From assembly GCF_000026545.1 (NCBI RefSeq), contig NC_011601.1: a stretch of 64,000 nucleotides of DNA. The stretch is one strand, 5' to 3'. A program made the position numbers and the translations under genes. Position 1 is the stretch's first letter. Every line of letters starts with the position of its first letter. The notes below the pieces were generated by a model. It was not told the DNA's origin and made no database searches. It worked only from the letters and a program-made list of their open reading frames with translations. This document shows, piece after piece, positions 3,286 through 12,285 of the stretch. Source of the stretch: Escherichia coli O127:H6 str. E2348/69 (GTDB taxonomy: Bacteria > Pseudomonadota > Gammaproteobacteria > Enterobacterales > Enterobacteriaceae).

Positions 3286-3316
3286 GAAAAATGGCGCCCA
3301 TCGGCGCCATTTTTTA
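3286..3316. terminator. Bidirectional hairpin terminator between convergent crr and pdxK
   Basis: aaaaatggcgcc-catc-ggcgccatttttt: perfect stem with A-run on one side and T-run on the other. Confidence 0.6.
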
Positions 3317-4165
3317 TGCTTCCGCCAGCGGCGGCAAAATCAATTCATCGCTCTCATGCTGCTGGGTGTAGCGCATCACTTCCAGTACGCGCAACCCCGC
3401 ACGGTGCACCGCATCGTTTAACGCCTTCCCTTTCAGCAAACCACTGATAAGCTGAGCACAAAACAGGTCGCCAGTCCCTTTCAGGTCGGTTTTTACCCGT
3501 GAATGGGAAATGACATTCACGCTGTCGGCACTGACCACCACCACCTGCATCTCCTGATTTTCTTCATTACCGGAGGCGCTGGTAATCACCACCCATTTTA
3601 ATGTGTCTGAAAGCAGACTTTTTGCGGCAGCAATGGCACTGTCGAGATCGCGGCAATTTTTACCGGTCAGGATTTCCAGCTCAAAAATATTGGGGGTAAT
3701 TCCCTGCGCCAGCGGCAGTAAATATTGTCGATACGCCTCGGGAAGGTCAGGTTTGACATAAATTCCGCTATCAATATCGCCAATCACTGGATCGACCATG
3801 ATCAATAGGTCAGGATGATCTTTGCGTAGCGCAGTCAGCCACTCGGCAAGGATTTTGATTTGCGATGCCGTTCCCATATAGCCCGTGGTTACAGCACGAA
3901 GTTGGCGCAGCGCATCACGCTCCTGAAGCGCACGCAAATAACCGCTAAACCATTCATCCGGAATCGCACCACCGTAGAAAGTGTCATAATGCGGCGTATT
4001 GCTCAGCAATACCGTCGGCACGGCAAAGACATTCAGGCCGTTCTGTTTGATAGCAGGCACCGCAATGCTGTTGCCTACGCTGCCGTACACTACCTGCGAC
4101 TGCACGGCAACGATATCCGCCTGCAGTGCCCTGCTCTTATCGTTAAACAACAACAAACTACTCAT
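3314..4165 (-). CDS. pdxK: Pyridoxal/pyridoxine/pyridoxamine kinase
   Basis: 283-aa ORF convergent with crr, consistent in size and position with PdxK. Confidence 0.9.
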
Positions 4166-4178
4166 TTAATTTTTTCTC

Positions 4179-4638
<460 letters not shown>

Positions 4639-4640
4639 TC

Positions 4641-5552
4641 TTAAATCCCCGCCCCCTGGCTAAAATACTCTTCCCCAAACACCCCGGTAGAAAGGTAGCG
4701 ATCGCCACGATCGCAGATGATCGCCACCACCACCGCGCCAGGGTTAGCTTTTGCCACCCGCAGTGCTCCGGCAACCGCGCCGCCGGAGCTTACGCCGCAG
4801 AAAATCCCTTCCCGCACTGCCAGTTCGCGCATGGTGTTTTCCGCATCGCGCTGATGAATATCCAGCACCTCATCCACCAGAGAAGCATTGAAAATCCCCG
4901 GCAGATATTCCGCAGGCCAGCGGCGAATGCCGGGAATACTGCTGCCTTCTTCCGGCTGCAGGCCAACAATGGTCACCGGTTTGGATTGTTCGCGCATAAA
5001 GCGTGACACACCGGTAATGGTGCCGGTCGTCCCCATACTGGAGACAAAATGCGTAATGCGCCCGCCAGTTTGCTGCCAGATTTCCGGCCCGGTGGTGGTG
5101 TAATGGGCGAAGGGATTATCAGGATTATTGAACTGATCGAGCAGCTTTCCTTCACCACGATTGGCCATCTCCAGCGCCAGATCGCGCGCGCCTTCCATGC
5201 CCTGCTCTTTGGTGACAAGAATCAGTTCCGCACCGTATGCCAGCATCGCTGCACGGCGCTCCTGGCTCATGTTGTCGGGCATCAGCAATTTCATGCGATA
5301 GCCTTTAAGCGCGGCAATCATTGCCAGCGCAATGCCGGTGTTACCACTGGTGGCTTCGATCAGCACGTCACCCGGTTTAATTTCCCCGCGCTTTTCCGCC
5401 TCAACGATCATCGAAAGTGCCGCACGATCTTTTACCGAACCTGCCGGGTTATTACCTTCCAGTTTCAACCAGACTTCACTGCCGTTATTCGGCCCCATTC
5501 GCTGCAACTTCACCAGAGGCGTATTGCCAATTGTTTGTTCTAATGTACTCAC
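4641..5552 (-). CDS. cysM: Cysteine synthase B
   Basis: 303-aa PLP-enzyme ORF; position at the end of the cysPUWAM operon. Confidence 0.95.
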   Translation of the reverse strand: MSTLEQTIGNTPLVKLQRMGPNNGSEVWLKLEGNNPAGSVKDRAALSMIVEAEKRGEIKPGDVLIEATSGNTGIALAMIAALKGYRMKLLMPDNMSQERRAAMLAYGAELILVTKEQGMEGARDLALEMANRGEGKLLDQFNNPDNPFAHYTTTGPEIWQQTGGRITHFVSSMGTTGTITGVSRFMREQSKPVTIVGLQPEEGSSIPGIRRWPAEYLPGIFNASLVDEVLDIHQRDAENTMRELAVREGIFCGVSSGGAVAGALRVAKANPGAVVVAIICDRGDRYLSTGVFGEEYFSQGAGI

Positions 5553-5571
5553 GATCTATGTCCATACGTGG

Positions 5572-5612
5572 TGTTGCCTGATGCGACGCTTGCGCGTCTT
5601 ATCAGGCCTACA
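5572..5612. repeat. REP (repetitive extragenic palindromic) element between cysA and cysM
   Basis: gcctgatgcgacgct...gcgtcttatcaggcctac imperfect palindrome typical of enterobacterial REP units (coordinates +/- a few bp). Confidence 0.5.
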
Positions 5613-5685
5613 GGTTACAAACCTTGCCATTAAAAAGCCCGGATCGCGGGAAGCGCCTCCGGGCGTTTAACATTCACTCAACCTA

Positions 5686-6783
5686 TCAGGCGCTTTGTGC
5701 GAGAGCAAGTTCCTCATCACGGGTTTCAATACGCTCATCGCCGTTATACAGCCGCGCATGTTGCAGACCAACGTATAAACGATCGCCACGCTGCGGGGCA
5801 TCGTCGCCATGCATCACGACCGTCAGCGGTTCGTTGTACCACCCCAGCGGCTGCACCACTAATTGGGTGTAGTGACCTTTCGGGCTGGCTTCCAGTACCT
5901 GTACTGGTAGCGGCGAATCGAGGCTGGTACGGCGGCTGATATCCACTTCCCACGGGCGCAGGAAGAGATCCACCGGCCCCTGATACGCGGGGGTGTATCC
6001 CAGCGGCCAGCGATGTGCGCCAACGTGGAACTGCCCGCCGCGAATGGTTCCCTGCAGGCGGTTTACCTCGCCCATAAACTCCAGCACAAAACGAGTCGCC
6101 GGTTCACGCCATACCTGATCCGGTGCGTCAGCTTGTTCAATATTGCCCTGACTCATCACCACTACACGATCAGCTACTTCGGTCGCCTCTTCCTGGTCGT
6201 GGGTCACGAACACGCTGGTGAATTTCAGTTCTTCATGCAGTTGACGCAGCCAGCGACGCAGCTCTTTACGCACCTGCGCATCCAGCGCGCCAAACGGTTC
6301 ATCAAGCAGCAAAATTTGCGGTTCCACAGCCAGCGCGCGTGCAAGCGCCACACGCTGTTTCTGACCGCCGGAAAGCTGCGCCGGATAACGATCCGCCAGA
6401 TGAGCAAGCTGCACCATCTCCAGCAATTTTGTCGCTTTCGCTTTGATCTGCGCCGCATTCGGGCGTTCACGCCGTGGCAACACCGTCAGGCCAAAAGCGA
6501 TATTGTCAAACACCGTCATATGGCGAAACAGCGCGTAATGCTGGAACACGAAACCGACTTTACGGTCCCGCGCGTGCAGACGGCTCACGTCGGTACCGTG
6601 AAAGCGAATATGCCCACTGGTTTGATGCTCCAGCCCGGCGATAATGCGCAGCAGCGTGGTTTTCCCGGAACCGGACGGCCCAAGCAACGCGACCATCTGA
6701 CCAGAAGGAATATCCAGTGAGATATCGTTCAGCACCTGGGTGCGACCAAACGACTTCTTAATATTGGCAATCTCAATGCTCAT
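5686..6783 (-). CDS. cysA: Sulfate/thiosulfate ABC transporter ATP-binding protein
   Basis: 365-aa ORF with Walker [10 protein letters not shown] and ABC signature [15 protein letters not shown]. Confidence 0.95.
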
Positions 6784-7648
6784 GATGCTCCTCCTGCTGC
6801 GCGCGTTTTTCCTGGTTCTCCAGGCGCCACTGCAACATACTCTTTAAAAACAGGGTGATAATCGCCATCAGCGTCAACAGCGCCGCGGCGGTAAAGGAGC
6901 CGACGGTGTTGTAGTCTTGCTCCAGCAATTCAATCTGTAACGGCAGCGAAAGTGTTTCGCCGCGAATCGAGCCGGAAACCACCGACACCGCACCAAACTC
7001 GCCAATCGCGCGGGCGTTGGTCAGCACCACGCCATAAAGCAGCGCCCAGCGGATGTTCGGCAGCGTGACGCGGCGAAACATCTGCCAGCCAGACGCGCCA
7101 AGCAAAATCGCCGCTTCGTCTTCCTGGCTGCCCTGGCTTAACATCACCGGCACCAGCTCACGCACCACAAACGGACACGTCACGAAGATGGTGACCAGCA
7201 CCATTCCCGGCCAGGAGAACATAATTTGCAGATTATGTTCATCCAGCCAGCCGCCGAGCGGGCCGTTAGAGCCGTAGAACAGCAAATACACCAGACCGGC
7301 AACCACCGGCGACACGGCAAACGGAATGTCCAGCAGCGTCAGCAATAACTGGCGTCCGGGGAAATTAAATCGCGTCACTAGCCACGCCAGCAGAATGCCG
7401 AACACTAGGTTCACCGGCACGGCAATCAGCGCAATCATCACCGTCAGCCAGATGGCGTGCAGCATGTCCGGATCGGCCAGATTCTGTAAAACCGGCATCA
7501 GCCCTTTGCTGAACGCCTGCACGAAGATGTAAATCATCGGCACCAGCAGGATGAACGCCGAAACCAGCATCCCGATGCCAATCAGAAACCATTTGCCCCA
7601 GTTAATCGGGCGCGCGTCATAACGCTTCAATTGTGTCACTTCCGCCAT
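6773..7648 (-). CDS. cysW: Sulfate/thiosulfate ABC transporter permease
   Basis: 291-aa polytopic membrane ORF overlapping cysA start; operon order. Confidence 0.95.
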
Positions 7649-8481
7649 TAATGACCTACCACACGCCGACCAAAGCGACTTTGCAGAGTGTTAATTGAGA
7701 ACAGCAGCAGCAGGGATGCCGCGAGGATCACCGAAGCAATTGCGCTCGCCGCCGGGTAATCAAACTCCTGTAAGCGCACAAAAATCATCAGCGACGTTAC
7801 TTCTGTTTTCCAGGCGATATTCCCGGCGATAAAAATCACCGCGCCAAACTCACCGAGGCTGCGGGTAAATGACAGCGCCACACCCGCCACCAGCGCCGGA
7901 GATAGTTCCGGCAGCACCACTTTGCGAAAACTCTGCCAGCGCGTAGCACCGAGCGTTTCTGCCGCTTCTTCATATTCCGGGCCTAACTCTTCCAGCACCG
8001 GCTGCACGGTGCGCACCACAAACGGAATGCTGGTAAAGGCCATCGCCACCGCAATCCCCAGCCATGTATAGGTGACTTTGATATCAAACTTCGCCAGCCA
8101 TTCACCGTAAAAACCGTTCACGGAAAAGAGCGAGGCCAGCGTTAAACCGGCGACTGCCGTTGGCAGCGCAAAGGGTAAATCCATCAGCGCATCAAGCAGC
8201 GTGCGGCCCGGAAAGCGATAGCGGGTTAAGATCCACGCCATCAGCAGACCGAAAACGCCGTTAAAAATCGATGCCACAAACGCCGACAGCAGCGTCACTT
8301 TATAGGCTGCGACCACCTGCGGGTTGGTGATCACCTCCCAGTACTGCGCCCAGCTCATCTGGGCCAGTTGCATCACCAGCGCGGAGAGCGGCAGCAGCAA
8401 AATCAGGCACACAAACAGCAGACTGGTGCCGAGGCTTAAGGTAAAGCCCGGCAGCACGCGTCTTGAAGAAACTGCAAACAT
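7648..8481 (-). CDS. cysU: Sulfate/thiosulfate ABC transporter permease
   Basis: 277-aa membrane ORF with start/stop overlap to cysW and cysP. Confidence 0.95.
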   Translation of the reverse strand: MFAVSSRRVLPGFTLSLGTSLLFVCLILLLPLSALVMQLAQMSWAQYWEVITNPQVVAAYKVTLLSAFVASIFNGVFGLLMAWILTRYRFPGRTLLDALMDLPFALPTAVAGLTLASLFSVNGFYGEWLAKFDIKVTYTWLGIAVAMAFTSIPFVVRTVQPVLEELGPEYEEAAETLGATRWQSFRKVVLPELSPALVAGVALSFTRSLGEFGAVIFIAGNIAWKTEVTSLMIFVRLQEFDYPAASAIASVILAASLLLLFSINTLQSRFGRRVVGH

Positions 8482-9497
8482 TACTTACGCCCCGCCGCTA
8501 ACAGCTTGTCTAACTCGCCGCCGCTGGTGAAGTGGGTTTTCATCACTTCCGGCCAGGAGCCAAATTTATCTTCCACGCGGAACAGCTCGGTCTGCGGAAA
8601 TTTATCTTTCAGTTTGCCCATGACTTCCGGGTTATTTACGCGGTAGTAATAGTCGGTGATGATGGTTTGCGCCTGCGGGCTATAGAGCCAGTTCAGGTAA
8701 GCTTTTGCTGCTTTTTCCGTACCGTTGGCCTGCACATTTTTATCGACCCACGCCACCGGGAATTCCGCCAGAATGTTGGTTTTCGGAATCACCACTTCAA
8801 AGCCCTGCGCTTCATACTGTTTACGGATGTTGTTCACTTCCGATTCAAAGCTGATCAACACATCGCCCAGGCCGCGCTCGGCAAAGGTGGTAGTCGCGCC
8901 ACGACCGCCAGTATCGAACACTTCAACGTTTTTCAGGAACTGAGTCATAAACTGTTCAGTTTTGGCTTTGTCGCCACCGTCGGCTTTGTCCGCTGCGCCC
9001 CATGCCGCAAGGTAGGTATAACGCGCGTTACCCGACGTTTTCGGGTTCGGGAAAATCAGCTTCACATCGGAGCGCACCAGGTCGTTCCAGTCGTGGATAT
9101 TCTTCGGGTTGCCCTTACGCACCAGGAAGCCCATGGTGGAGTAGAACGGCGAGCTATTATTCGGCAGGCGCGACTGCCAGTCCGCTGGGATCAGCTTGCC
9201 TTTATCGTGCAGGATTTGTACGTCGGTCACCTGGTTATAAGTGACAACGTCGGCTTTTAAGCCCTGCAAAATCGCCAGCGCCTGTTTTGATGATCCGGCA
9301 TGAGATTGTTTAATCGTCAGTTTGTCGCCACCGTTATCTTTTGCCCATTGCTGTTCAAACGGCGGGTTCAGGGCGGCAAACAGCTCGCGGGAGACGTCAT
9401 AAGAACTGTTCAGCAGTTCCGTTGCCTGTACATGGCCCGCCAGTAGCAGAGAAGCGACCAGCACGAGTGAGTTCTTTTTCAGTAAGTTAACGGCCAT
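8481..9497 (-). CDS. cysP: Thiosulfate-binding periplasmic protein
   Basis: 338-aa ORF with signal peptide; first gene of the cysPUWAM operon. Confidence 0.95.
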
Positions 9498-9636
9498 TGC
9501 GCACCCTTATAAATTTAACGACTTTCTAATAGCCATCATATTTATAACGGACGTGAAAGGAGTAACGGTTTTATATACCGTTTGGTGATTTGGAAGTTGA
9601 AAAGGGAATAAGACGAAATCCTCCCCACAAATGCAG

Positions 9637-11186
9637 CTGTCTCTTATACACAAATCCCCACCCGGGGATTTGTGATGTCTGTCAGTCTGCTTTAGGGGGA
9701 CTCTTTCCATCCGGTAGTTTCCTTCCTCCCCGGCAGCGATTTTTTGAACTTTTTCCTCACCCGTTGATCTTCTCTTATATTTCATTTTCTTCGGGTCTGT
9801 TATGGTACTTTCTGATTGTTATTCATGGGCTAACGAGCAGTTTGGACATGCCCGTCTCGGTGATCCGCGTCGTACACGACGCCTTGTGTCACTGGCCTCT
9901 TCTCTCGCTCAGCATGCAGGTCTTTCTATTGTGAAATCATCCCAGTCCACTGCTCAGGTTGAAGGTGCGTACCGCCTGATACGTAACCCGTCTGTGTCCC
10001 CGCAAGCCATTGCCGAAGCCGGATTTACCGCCACTGTAAGGACATGTGAGGCTCATCCGCTGCTCCTCGCGCTGGAAGACACCACCACCATTAACTTCAG
10101 TCACAGTACGGCATCTGATGACCTGGGGAATACCACCACTAACCCGAAGACGCGCGGGCTGCTGGCTCACTCTGTCCTGATGTACGCCCCCGACAGCGCC
10201 CTGCCAGTCGGTCTTATCGAACAGCAGCGCTGGAGTCGTGCCACGGACACCTACGGTGTTAAGCACCAGCGAAAAGAACGTCCCTATGAAGAAAAAGAAA
10301 GTTACCGCTGGCAGCAGGCTTCGGAGCGCATGGCCGAACGGCTGGGGGAGATACAGAAACGGGTAATCACTGTCTGTGACCGGGAAGCGGATATCTGGCA
10401 TTACCTGCATTATAAAGTCAGCCACGGGCAGCGCTTCGTGGTGCGTGCAGCACAGAATCGCCGGCTGGAAGAAGCACCCGGCAAGCTCTTCGAACTGCCG
10501 GAAGTCCTGGCAACCGCGGGAAGCCACACGCTGAATGTGATGCAAAAAGGCGGGCGGGCAGCCCGCCAGGCCCGGATGTTCATCAGTTACAGCGAAGTCA
10601 GCATAAAAAATCCCGACAACAGCGGCCAGGCGCTCCCGCTCACGTATGTCTGTTGCCGGGAGCAGGCAGAGGACGGCGCCTGCTGGCATCTGCTGACGTC
10701 AGAAAAAGTGGCGAGTGCCGCCGATGCGCGACGTATCGTCAGCCATTACGAGCGACGCTGGCTGATAGAGGAATACCACAAGGCGTGGAAAAGTGGTGGT
10801 ACATGTGTGGAATCGCTGCGAATGCAGACCCGGGATAACCTCGAGCGCATGGTGGTTATCAAGGCGTTTATCGCGGTGCGGGTGCTGGGCCTGCGGCAGG
10901 GCGGTATCAGTGAAGAAACACAAAATGACAGCTGTGAGAAAATACTGACGCCGACAGAGTGGAAACTGCTGTGGGTTAAGCTGGAAGGAAAACCGCTTCC
11001 GTCACAGATGCCGACACTGAAATGGGCCTGTCTGAAACTGGCGAAACTGGGGCGATGGCATGACAGCAAACGCACCGGTCGCCCCGGTTGGGTAGTCATG
11101 TGGGATGGCTGGTTCAGACTTCAGGATATGGTTGAGGGTTACCTGGTGATGAAGTCTCTTGATCAGGAGATCTGATCAAGAGACAG
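9637..11186 (+). mobile_element. IS4-family insertion sequence of the IS50/Tn5 type (~1.55 kb), flanked by a 9-10 bp direct repeat
   Basis: Left end ctgtctcttatacacaaat resembles the Tn5 outside end; right end agatctgatcaagagacag is the reverse complement of the Tn5 inside-end sequence as I recall it (two GATC sites). Direct repeat acaaatgcag at 9627-9636 and 11187-11196. Confidence 0.85.
9802..11175 (+). CDS. IS50-like (Tn5-type) DDE transposase
   Basis: 457-aa ORF with ...LGDPRRTRRLV..., ...VCDREADI... and ...YERRWLIEEYHKAWKSGG... motifs that parallel Tn5 Tnp motifs; clearly diverged from Tn5 Tnp itself. Stop codon lies inside the right terminal repeat as in IS50. Confidence 0.9.
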   Translation: MVLSDCYSWANEQFGHARLGDPRRTRRLVSLASSLAQHAGLSIVKSSQSTAQVEGAYRLIRNPSVSPQAIAEAGFTATVRTCEAHPLLLALEDTTTINFSHSTASDDLGNTTTNPKTRGLLAHSVLMYAPDSALPVGLIEQQRWSRATDTYGVKHQRKERPYEEKESYRWQQASERMAERLGEIQKRVITVCDREADIWHYLHYKVSHGQRFVVRAAQNRRLEEAPGKLFELPEVLATAGSHTLNVMQKGGRAARQARMFISYSEVSIKNPDNSGQALPLTYVCCREQAEDGACWHLLTSEKVASAADARRIVSHYERRWLIEEYHKAWKSGGTCVESLRMQTRDNLERMVVIKAFIAVRVLGLRQGGISEETQNDSCEKILTPTEWKLLWVKLEGKPLPSQMPTLKWACLKLAKLGRWHDSKRTGRPGWVVMWDGWFRLQDMVEGYLVMKSLDQEI

Positions 11187-11214
11187 ACAAATGCAGGGAG
11201 GAAACAGAGGTGAA

Positions 11215-12006
11215 TCAGATGCCGACGCTAACCGTCTCCGGTAGTGTGCTGCCGCCATCAATCACATTCTGTGTACCGGTTAAATAGCTGGATTCATCCG
11301 ATGCGAGGAAGGCCGCCAGTTCGCCGACTTCCAGCGGATCGGCGAGGCGACGCATCGGGATTGCTTTCGCCATTTCAGTCAGCACCGATTCTGGATCTTC
11401 CGGGTTTGACTGGCGGGCAATGCTTTCCGCCATTGGCGTGCGAACGTATCCAGGGCAGATGGCGTTAACGCGAATACCAGACTGCGCGTACTCCACCGCC
11501 AGCGATTTAGTCAGGCCAACAATCGCCGCTTTCGTTAAGGCGTACGCCGTTTCACCCGGGTCTGCCACCATATCGCCAGTAACTGAAGACATCATCACAA
11601 TGCGGCCATCTTTGCGGGCAATCATCTCCGGCAGCACCGCCTTCGTGACGTTCCATACGCCTTTTATATTGATATCAATATGGAAATCGCGATCTTCATC
11701 GCTCATATCGAGGAAACTGCCCAGACGACAAACGCCTGCGTTATTCACCAGAATATCAATGCGCCCTTCTTTTTCCTTAGCGCGCTTAATAGCTGCGGCT
11801 ACCGACGCCGGGTCACGCACATCGGCGACAACCGCCGTACAGCGATGACCACGACCACACAGTTCGTCCGCCAGCTTTTCGATCTCAGGGGAGATATCCA
11901 GCAAGATTAGGTTTGCGCCATGACGCGCAAAAGTTCTGGCAATTCCTTCGCCAATTCCCTGCAATGCGCCCGTAATCAGTGCTGTCTTGCCCGTGAGTTT
12001 ACCCAT
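11215..12006 (-). CDS. ucpA: Short-chain dehydrogenase/reductase UcpA
   Basis: Starts MGKLTGKTALITGALQGIGEGIA (Rossmann TGxxxGxG) with AGGAG RBS upstream; the track ORF extends 22 codons further upstream but the RBS supports this start. Confidence 0.9.
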   Translation of the reverse strand: MGKLTGKTALITGALQGIGEGIARTFARHGANLILLDISPEIEKLADELCGRGHRCTAVVADVRDPASVAAAIKRAKEKEGRIDILVNNAGVCRLGSFLDMSDEDRDFHIDINIKGVWNVTKAVLPEMIARKDGRIVMMSSVTGDMVADPGETAYALTKAAIVGLTKSLAVEYAQSGIRVNAICPGYVRTPMAESIARQSNPEDPESVLTEMAKAIPMRRLADPLEVGELAAFLASDESSYLTGTQNVIDGGSTLPETVSVGI

Positions 12007-12285
12007 TTTAATGCTCTCCTTGTTAATACAGAGCGTTACACTCCATTCCCTCTGAAAATACAGGATAAACAAAATATTGCTGCGGATCAGCTCACTAATT
12101 CAGGAAAATCTCAATTTAGTCGCTGCTTTATGCAGCACCTCAAGCGTTACGTCAGCGCGCAATCATTTTCAGTGACATCACATGAGTAATATTCGGACTT
12201 AATGATTCCTTTGTGTCTATCAAATCGGGATATATGATCCCATTTATCTGCAATTATTTGATCGCAAATATTAAGGTCACCACCG

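Follow-up and report, generated by a model that had tools for sequence, protein, structure and literature searches.

The window, a stretch of 64,000 nucleotides from Escherichia coli O127:H6 strain E2348/69 covering its cysK-eut region, carries in the RefSeq annotation the gene order ptsHI-crr, pdxK, yfeK, cysM, cysAWTP, ISEc13, ucpA, murQ, murP, an 87-bp fragment, yfeX and yfeY. Its segment 3300-16400 was matched at 100% over the full length by three E2348/69 assemblies and at no more than 97.5% by other genomes. The three independent assemblies were concordant at all three junctions analysed here, yfeK/cysM, ucpA/murQ and murP/yfeX. The features of these junctions are the following.

4270-4638, plus strand: yfeK, 122 aa (124 aa in K-12).
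4636-4643: tail-to-tail junction of yfeK and cysM (TAA-tc-TTA), the empty site of the yfeS cassette.
4641-5552, minus strand: cysM, from the annotation.
11215-12006, minus strand: ucpA, 263 aa from the annotated ATG.
12135-12183, minus strand: decayed 3' remnant of murR, lacking, by a secondary deletion, 10 bp that E. albertii and K-12 have.
12167-12182, plus strand: TTTCA-gtgaca-TCACA, a CAP-site look-alike recognised by eye, formed by the murR 3' end in the register of the deleted CAP-like site.
12184-12195: 12-bp junction or filler, GAGTAATATTCG, common to E. albertii and strain Z1323CEC0015.
12196-12285, plus strand: the 90 bp of the murR-murQ control region that survive, from the alignment.
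12202-12209, plus strand: intact ATGATTCC box in the retained 90 bp.
12211-12216 and 12233-12238, plus strand: best sigma-70-like pair, TTGTGT and TATGAT with a 16-nt spacer, scoring equal to K-12.
12234-12241, plus strand: ATGATCCC, the mutated second copy of ATGATTCC in the retained 90 bp.
12280-12253, minus strand: promoter-like site, GTGACC and AATAAT with a 16-nt spacer, plausibly the former murR promoter.
12286-13182, plus strand: murQ (MurNAc-6-P etherase), intact, 298 aa.
13186-14610, plus strand: murP (MurNAc PTS EIIBC), intact, 474 aa.
14615-14704, plus strand: yfeW stub, a 29-codon ORF (in RefSeq 87 bp, "hypothetical, missing C-terminus").
14736-14769: hairpin in the spacer from the yfeW stub to yfeX, with a 14-bp stem (-24.5 kcal/mol, z = -6.8).
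14790-15689, minus strand: yfeX, from the annotation.

The initial annotation had described the yfeK and cysM stop codons as 2 bp apart with no terminator between them, a ucpA-murQ gap with no regulator ORF and a murP-yfeX gap of about 180 bp. The coordinates bear this out: the yfeK TAA occupies 4636-4638 and the cysM TTA (complement) 4641-4643, with no terminator-like site in 4450-4850; ucpA, with its start codon ending at 12006, is separated from the murQ ATG at 12286 by 279 bp without a regulator ORF; the murP stop is at 14610 and the end of yfeX at 14790. The genes yfeS, murR and yfeW, which the initial annotation named as the K-12 occupants of these positions, are annotated there in MG1655 (yfeS at yfeK/cysM, murR at ucpA/murQ, yfeW at murP/yfeX), in agreement with the blastn alignment.

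This alignment placed the breakpoints as follows, in coordinates of the K-12 region L002. At the yfeS site, window 4635|4636 corresponds to 5708|6667; the 958 bp of 5709-6666 are extra in K-12, and there is no filler. At the murR site, window 12183|12196 corresponds to 12811|13684, the 872 bp of 12812-13683 being replaced by 12 bp. At the yfeW site, position 14697 of the window joins 16185 to 17369, and the 1183 bp of 16186-17368 are gone. When the whole 64-kb window was searched by tblastn with YfeS, MurR and YfeW, YfeW aa 1-29 and aa 423-433 were the sole matches; none was obtained for MurR or YfeS. These differences in gene content are structural and not statistical, and chance is therefore not at issue.

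Copies elsewhere in the genome were searched for by megablast, in which copies of less than about 85% nucleotide identity would escape. The composite query consisted of a 3.5-kb strain-rare anchor (window 20500-24000), the K-12 yfeS CDS and the deleted murR and yfeW segments. On each of the three E2348/69 chromosomes the anchor was the single matching place, with no yfeS, murR or yfeW elsewhere, as the proposed absence of MurR and of a penicillin-binding protein (PBP4B) from this strain requires. Over the plasmid records of the whole collection, taken together, one matched murR and one matched yfeW; so low a count argues against plasmid-borne copies in this strain.

Prevalence was determined among 5426 complete E. 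coli genomes. The K-12 murR segment was present in 4379 and the murR junction of the window in 1046 (1044 at 99% identity or more); for yfeW the numbers were 4153 and 1271. The absence of murR and yfeW, first described as a property of this strain, is accordingly widespread and extends to CFT073 and 536; NRG 857C, APEC O1 and APEC O18 also carry the murR junction. The union of all composite-query matches amounted to 4387 genomes, that is, the 4379 murR holders and eight that matched the anchor only, so that every holder of yfeS or yfeW also has murR; 1047 of the 5426 genomes lack all three genes. E2348/69 belongs to the murR/yfeW-deleted haplotype, having the same murR and yfeW junctions and the same empty yfeK|cysM site as CFT073 and 536; in CFT073 the architecture of the three sites is identical to that of the window. 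Strain PCN033 has murR, yet its yfeW junction is that of the window, which makes the yfeW loss the more widespread of the two. With E2348/69, CFT073, 536, NRG 857C, APEC O1/O18 and ST95 taken by us to be phylogroup B2 strains, the distribution of the murR-deletion allele, found in about 19% of E. coli genomes, is consistent with phylogroup B2.

The polarity of the differences was examined in species-representative genomes, which were scanned with MurQ and then searched by tblastn with the K-12 proteins. In this survey murR adjoins murQ in the cryptic Escherichia lineages, E. whittamii, Salmonella arizonae, Citrobacter, Rahnella and Vibrio, and yfeW lies 3' of murP in several of the murR-positive genomes. 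Since remnants of murR and yfeW persist in the window, these genes were lost and not simply never present; remnants and outgroup occurrence together identify both as old deletions.

In K-12 the murR-murQ intergenic region is 163 bp long. The deletion takes its murR-proximal 73 bp and spares the murQ-proximal 90 bp, and the place of the divergent gene for the RpiR-family repressor upstream of murQ is held by a decayed 3' remnant of 49-61 nt. The gene was lost to a deletion of some 0.85 kb running from its interior into the divergent control region, with loss of the 5' end, the start codon and the 73 intergenic bp. A simple microhomology deletion at the motif CACA was considered and discarded, the 13 nt after CACA mismatching the right-hand sequence of K-12; a larger deletion followed by small secondary ones fitted the multi-species alignment better. 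The filler may be further decayed murR sequence with secondary deletions of 4 bp and 20 bp.

Footprinting alignment of the control regions of murR-positive Escherichia and Citrobacter revealed a conserved CAP-like site, TATGA/TTTGA-N6-TCACA, at K-12 L002 13655-13670, and two conserved ATGATTCC boxes, at 13690 and 13722. TATGAT lies inside the second box and gave, together with TTTAAG, the top sigma-70-like score on the murQ strand of K-12. Reckoned from this -10 element, the CAP-like site is centred near -71.5, which fits the class I CAP site that, along with face-to-face promoters, is said to have been described for this region. The putative -10, -35 and CAP-site assignments were drawn from footprinting, with a home-made sigma-70 score for the promoters, and from what Jaeger & Mayer 2008 reportedly describe.

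In E2348/69 no such cAMP-CAP site is left upstream of the murQ promoter, the motif lying within the deleted 73 bp. The look-alike at 12167-12182 is missing both G residues of the left half-site and could still bind CAP weakly. The conserved ATGATTCC boxes are represented by one intact and one altered copy (ATGATCCC); the MurR operator presumably consists of two adjacent inverted repeats in the murR-murQ intergenic region.

The retained 90 bp differ from those of murR-positive E. coli at 10 of 90 bases and from those of E. albertii at 4. Between the window and CFT073 only 1 of the 279 bases of the ucpA-murQ spacer is different, while murQ and murP show a pS of 0.15-0.17. A recent sweep across B2 was considered for this contrast and rejected, the SNP profile being mosaic: the murR junction lies inside a low-divergence, clonal-frame-like block (9550-12500), and a separate recombinant block begins at about 12550. 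Vertical inheritance within B2 is therefore sufficient to explain the near-identical spacer. The mosaic extends over window 3300-19300, where stretches with 0-2 SNPs per 250 bp to CFT073 alternate with stretches with 10-23 per 250 bp; the high-divergence blocks are cysM, cysW and the segment from the 3' end of murQ through murP to yfeX.

Both structural genes of the pathway are adjacent, co-oriented and full length in E2348/69, with 98% (MurQ) and 99% (MurP) amino-acid identity to K-12. Values of dN/dS were 0.053 for murQ and 0.035 for murP against K-12, and 0.08 and 0.04 against CFT073, which also lacks murR; overall they ranged over 0.05-0.09 for murQ and 0.03-0.05 for murP. Such values point to strong purifying selection on both genes and argue for their continued function.

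A murR mutant reportedly has about 20-fold higher murQ transcription and loses its growth lag. MurR represses murQP, MurNAc-6-P relieves this repression, and a murR mutant grows faster on MurNAc (PMC9177960). The initial annotation had expected murQP to be constitutive in this strain. This holds in that the repressor gene is gone, and MurR-independent expression of murQP is likely from the structure of the locus; however, the same deletion took the conserved CAP-like activator site, so that the expectation is only half borne out and constitutive expression at a high level does not follow. The operon would lie beyond repression by MurR or induction by MurNAc-6-P and would have lost its native cAMP-CAP site. 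Its transcription would start from TTGTGT-16 nt-TATGAT at a constant, probably moderate level and end at the retained hairpin. This promoter could be too weak without CAP, in which case constitutive would mean low, and cross-regulation by another RpiR-family regulator could also occur.

The loss of the CAP-like site could mean, further, that the operon is effectively silent and decaying into a pseudogene cluster, its presence being a matter of inertia. In favour of this are also the state of E. albertii, in which the same murR allele accompanies a murP split by IS1 and a frameshift and a decayed yfeW, and the failure of any plus-strand promoter in the window to reach the scan threshold. We consider decay unlikely, however. 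Both genes are full length in E2348/69, CFT073, Z1323CEC0015 and all listed matches; dN/dS stays at 0.03-0.09 even between murR-less strains with a synonymous divergence of 0.15-0.17; and the best-scoring core promoter has been kept at a score equal to that of K-12. In addition, MurQ is needed for the recycling of anhMurNAc whatever the state of MurP. Continued, MurR-independent expression is the reading we prefer.

The murR allele of the window occurs also outside E. coli. In the E. albertii type strain murR is absent and the ucpA-murQ spacer is 289 bp long. The murR junction reads CCACATtAGTggTATTCGGACT in E. albertii and TCACATGAGTAATATTCGGACT in the window; the filler and the 4-bp and 20-bp secondary deletions, defined relative to intact murR, are the same in both. 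Four more E. albertii contexts, including TW07627, showed the same architecture. Over the retained 90 bp the window is 95.6% identical to E. albertii and 88-89% identical to murR-positive E. coli, the reverse of what was found for the flanking ucpA and murQ, where the identities are about 90% (dS 0.40-0.47) and 95-97%. Nine positions in 12200-12271 are common to B2 and E. albertii against all murR-positive Escherichia examined, and each species has its own sequence type from 12321 rightwards and to the left of about 12150.

As judged from these shared features, the murR allele of B2 and that of E. albertii are identical by descent over a patch that does not exceed about 170 bp. Short-tract recombination between E. 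albertii and E. coli explains the shared allele most economically. The E. albertii remnant keeps the 10 bp lost in B2, and one of the shared states matches the cryptic clades.

Had the same junction arisen twice, in B2 and in E. albertii, a deletion-prone repeat might be responsible: the murR 3' end (TTTTCAATGACTCCACA) and the CAP-site region (CTTATGACGCTCTTCACA) share a short similarity, at which illegitimate recombination might tend to recur. The sharing of the filler, of both secondary deletions and of nine derived substitutions in 90 bp, absent from the murR-positive Escherichia examined, makes such a coincidence highly improbable. Common descent of the allele is preferred here, and a more specific version of it can be put forward tentatively, as a possibility well short of an even chance. 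The junction and a remodelled murQ promoter, on a tract not exceeding about 170 bp, would have been exchanged by homologous recombination between E. albertii and the B2 ancestor and kept in both because MurR-independent expression was advantageous, the shared AA-to-GT change, which gives TTG in the -35 element, partly compensating for the lost CAP site. Neutral drift on the B2 branch could by itself give about as many changes as the nine that are shared.

The rest of the E. albertii pathway has fared differently. In L035/L036 6901-9470, murP is interrupted by an IS1 and also frameshifted, and of yfeW only fragments corresponding to aa 1-56 and 161-228 are left; murQ is intact, and the etherase is the sole step of the pathway kept there.

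Strain Z1323CEC0015, a chicken isolate, combines the murR junction and the 10-bp secondary deletion with a 90-bp promoter piece of K-12 type (L005 9001-9201; the 201 bp are 92% identical to the window). The strain is probably a later recombinant, with a crossover within a few bases of the junction. Its candidacy as an ancestral intermediate was dismissed, the 10-bp secondary deletion, which E. albertii lacks, being already present.

Downstream of murP, the third gene yfeW (pbp4B) is reduced in the window to the 29-codon stub, in which the first 83 bp of the gene (aa 1-29, the signal-peptide region) run at 14697 directly into its final 39 bp. The gene for PBP4B was removed by the 1183-bp internal deletion common to the 1271 genomes. 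It is independently missing from two Citrobacter genomes and from SCPM-O-B-8794; the junction differs in SCPM-O-B-8794, the only one of these aligned. PBP4B is a non-essential minor penicillin-binding protein, and its loss should have little phenotype. The hairpin at 14736-14769 is probably the original bidirectional terminator, now closing the murQP operon. In the region of the yfeW junction, E2348/69 is 100% identical to the murR-positive PCN033 but only 94-95.5% identical to most other carriers.

The history of the yfeK/cysM site is of the opposite kind. The yfeS cassette of K-12, a WGR-domain gene with a REP/BIME element (of which each genome has at least 40 copies), has a GC content of 0.40 over its 958 bp, against 0.50-0.56 in the flanks, and is bordered by the direct repeat ATTAATCC; it replaces the final codons of yfeK, which is why this gene has two more codons in K-12. 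The full-length K-12 segment was found in 1381 of the 5426 genomes (about 25%) and the empty junction in 4038, among them O157:H7, O103, ST95 and other genomes. By tblastn, yfeS was found in none of the outgroups examined, and in Escherichia sp. E1V33 and SCPM-O-B-8794 yfeK and cysM abut as they do in the window. These results identify yfeS as a gain of the K-12 lineage and the 2-bp yfeK|cysM junction as the ancestral, majority state. At this site E2348/69 never had yfeS, the cassette having been inserted there in K-12 and about a quarter of E. coli. The proposal that three genes are missing from a conserved backbone therefore fails for yfeS, a minority cassette.

An origin of all three genes by insertion in the K-12 lineage, with the window ancestral and never occupied at any site, is true of the outgroup-absent, AT-rich and repeat-flanked yfeS, but as an account of all three sites it is scarcely tenable in view of the murR 3' and yfeW 5' (aa 1-29) and 3' (aa 423-433) remnants, the synteny of murR and yfeW in cryptic Escherichia, Salmonella and Citrobacter, and the GC content of 0.52 of both genes, similar to that of their surroundings.

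The tail-to-tail yfeK|cysM junction is an insertion hotspot, being occupied by the yfeS cassette in K-12 and by an unrelated 1.8-kb cassette in E. albertii (L010 2056-3895; ORFs of 280 and 175 aa with no confident Pfam match), each of which rewrites the final codons of yfeK.

With considerable confidence, the differences between E2348/69 and K-12 at the three sites can be ascribed to three independent events of different polarity. They are mainly ordinary lineage-level variation in gene content, visible in existing annotations. No relevant earlier report of the absence of murR or yfeW in B2 was found in the literature searched. What is added here to the initial annotation and to that literature is that the activator site was lost together with the repressor gene, that the allele is clade-wide, and that it is common to E. 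albertii.

Several other features distinguish this region. ISEc13 (IS4 family; window 9637-11186, 1550 bp), with IS50-like ends (CTGTCTCTT...) and the target duplication ACAAATGCAG, lies between cysP and ucpA, 140 bp upstream of the cysP start codon, and could affect the cysP promoter/CysB region. At this place it was found in the three E2348/69 assemblies only, each of which matched the 13-kb IS-containing query at 29-32 places. Two REP/BIME-like stretches occur in K-12 only and are absent from the window: L002 11646-11787 (142 bp, cysP-ucpA) and 17443-17594 (152 bp, yfeW-yfeX). Between hemF and eutR, which adjoin directly in K-12, CFT073 and PCN033, the window carries an island (19312-25148) encoding a 1149-aa SNF2-related protein, a DUF1963 protein and small hypothetical proteins; its 3.5-kb piece 20500-24000 gave a best match in only 8 of the 5426 complete E. 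coli genomes. Farther to the right (window 27507-64000), a Mu-like prophage with transposase, Mor, terminase and tail genes (about 28247-63552) is inserted in eutC, separating a 3' fragment (27507-27944) from a 5' fragment (from 63661), so that the ethanolamine-utilisation operon is interrupted.

The K-12 murR/murQ-murP-yfeW locus serves the MurR/CAP-regulated catabolism of MurNAc and its recycling (Zhang et al. 2022, PMC9177960). E2348/69 has in common with it the orthologous murQ and murP, the flanking genes, the murQ-proximal 90 bp with the ATGATTCC boxes and the TATGAT -10 element, and the downstream hairpin; it differs in the absence of murR, the CAP-like site and yfeW and in the 10 substitutions in the 90 bp. 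Laboratory murR deletion mutants of K-12 likewise lack the repressor but keep the whole intergenic region with its CAP site, which the natural allele does not have. The expression level and catabolite control of the natural allele may therefore be unlike those of the laboratory mutants. The ucpA-murQ locus of E. albertii (NBRC 107761, TW07627) is the same in murR junction, filler and small secondary deletions and differs in that its yfeW decayed through other deletions and its murP is disrupted. Like the cadA "black holes" of Shigella and EIEC, the present case is the deletion, fixed throughout a pathogen-rich lineage, of a K-12 core-like gene; unlike them, nothing here marks the loss as pathoadaptive, and the lineage includes commensals and probiotic strains (A0 34/86).

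The yfeS case illustrates that K-12 is not equal to the species backbone, and the allele shared with E. albertii shows neatly, on a small scale, that a loss-of-function allele can cross from one species into another. The control of murQP by MurR and CAP is textbook K-12 biology. If neither the repressor nor the activator site is present in about one fifth of sequenced E. coli, the K-12 model misdescribes cell-wall sugar recycling in these strains, a clinically dominant group that comprises the main extraintestinal pathogenic lineages, the EPEC strain E2348/69 and probiotic B2 strains. The murR-less strains are natural experiments in constitutive MurNAc-6-P processing, which bears on peptidoglycan turnover, on muropeptide release and perhaps on beta-lactam responses.
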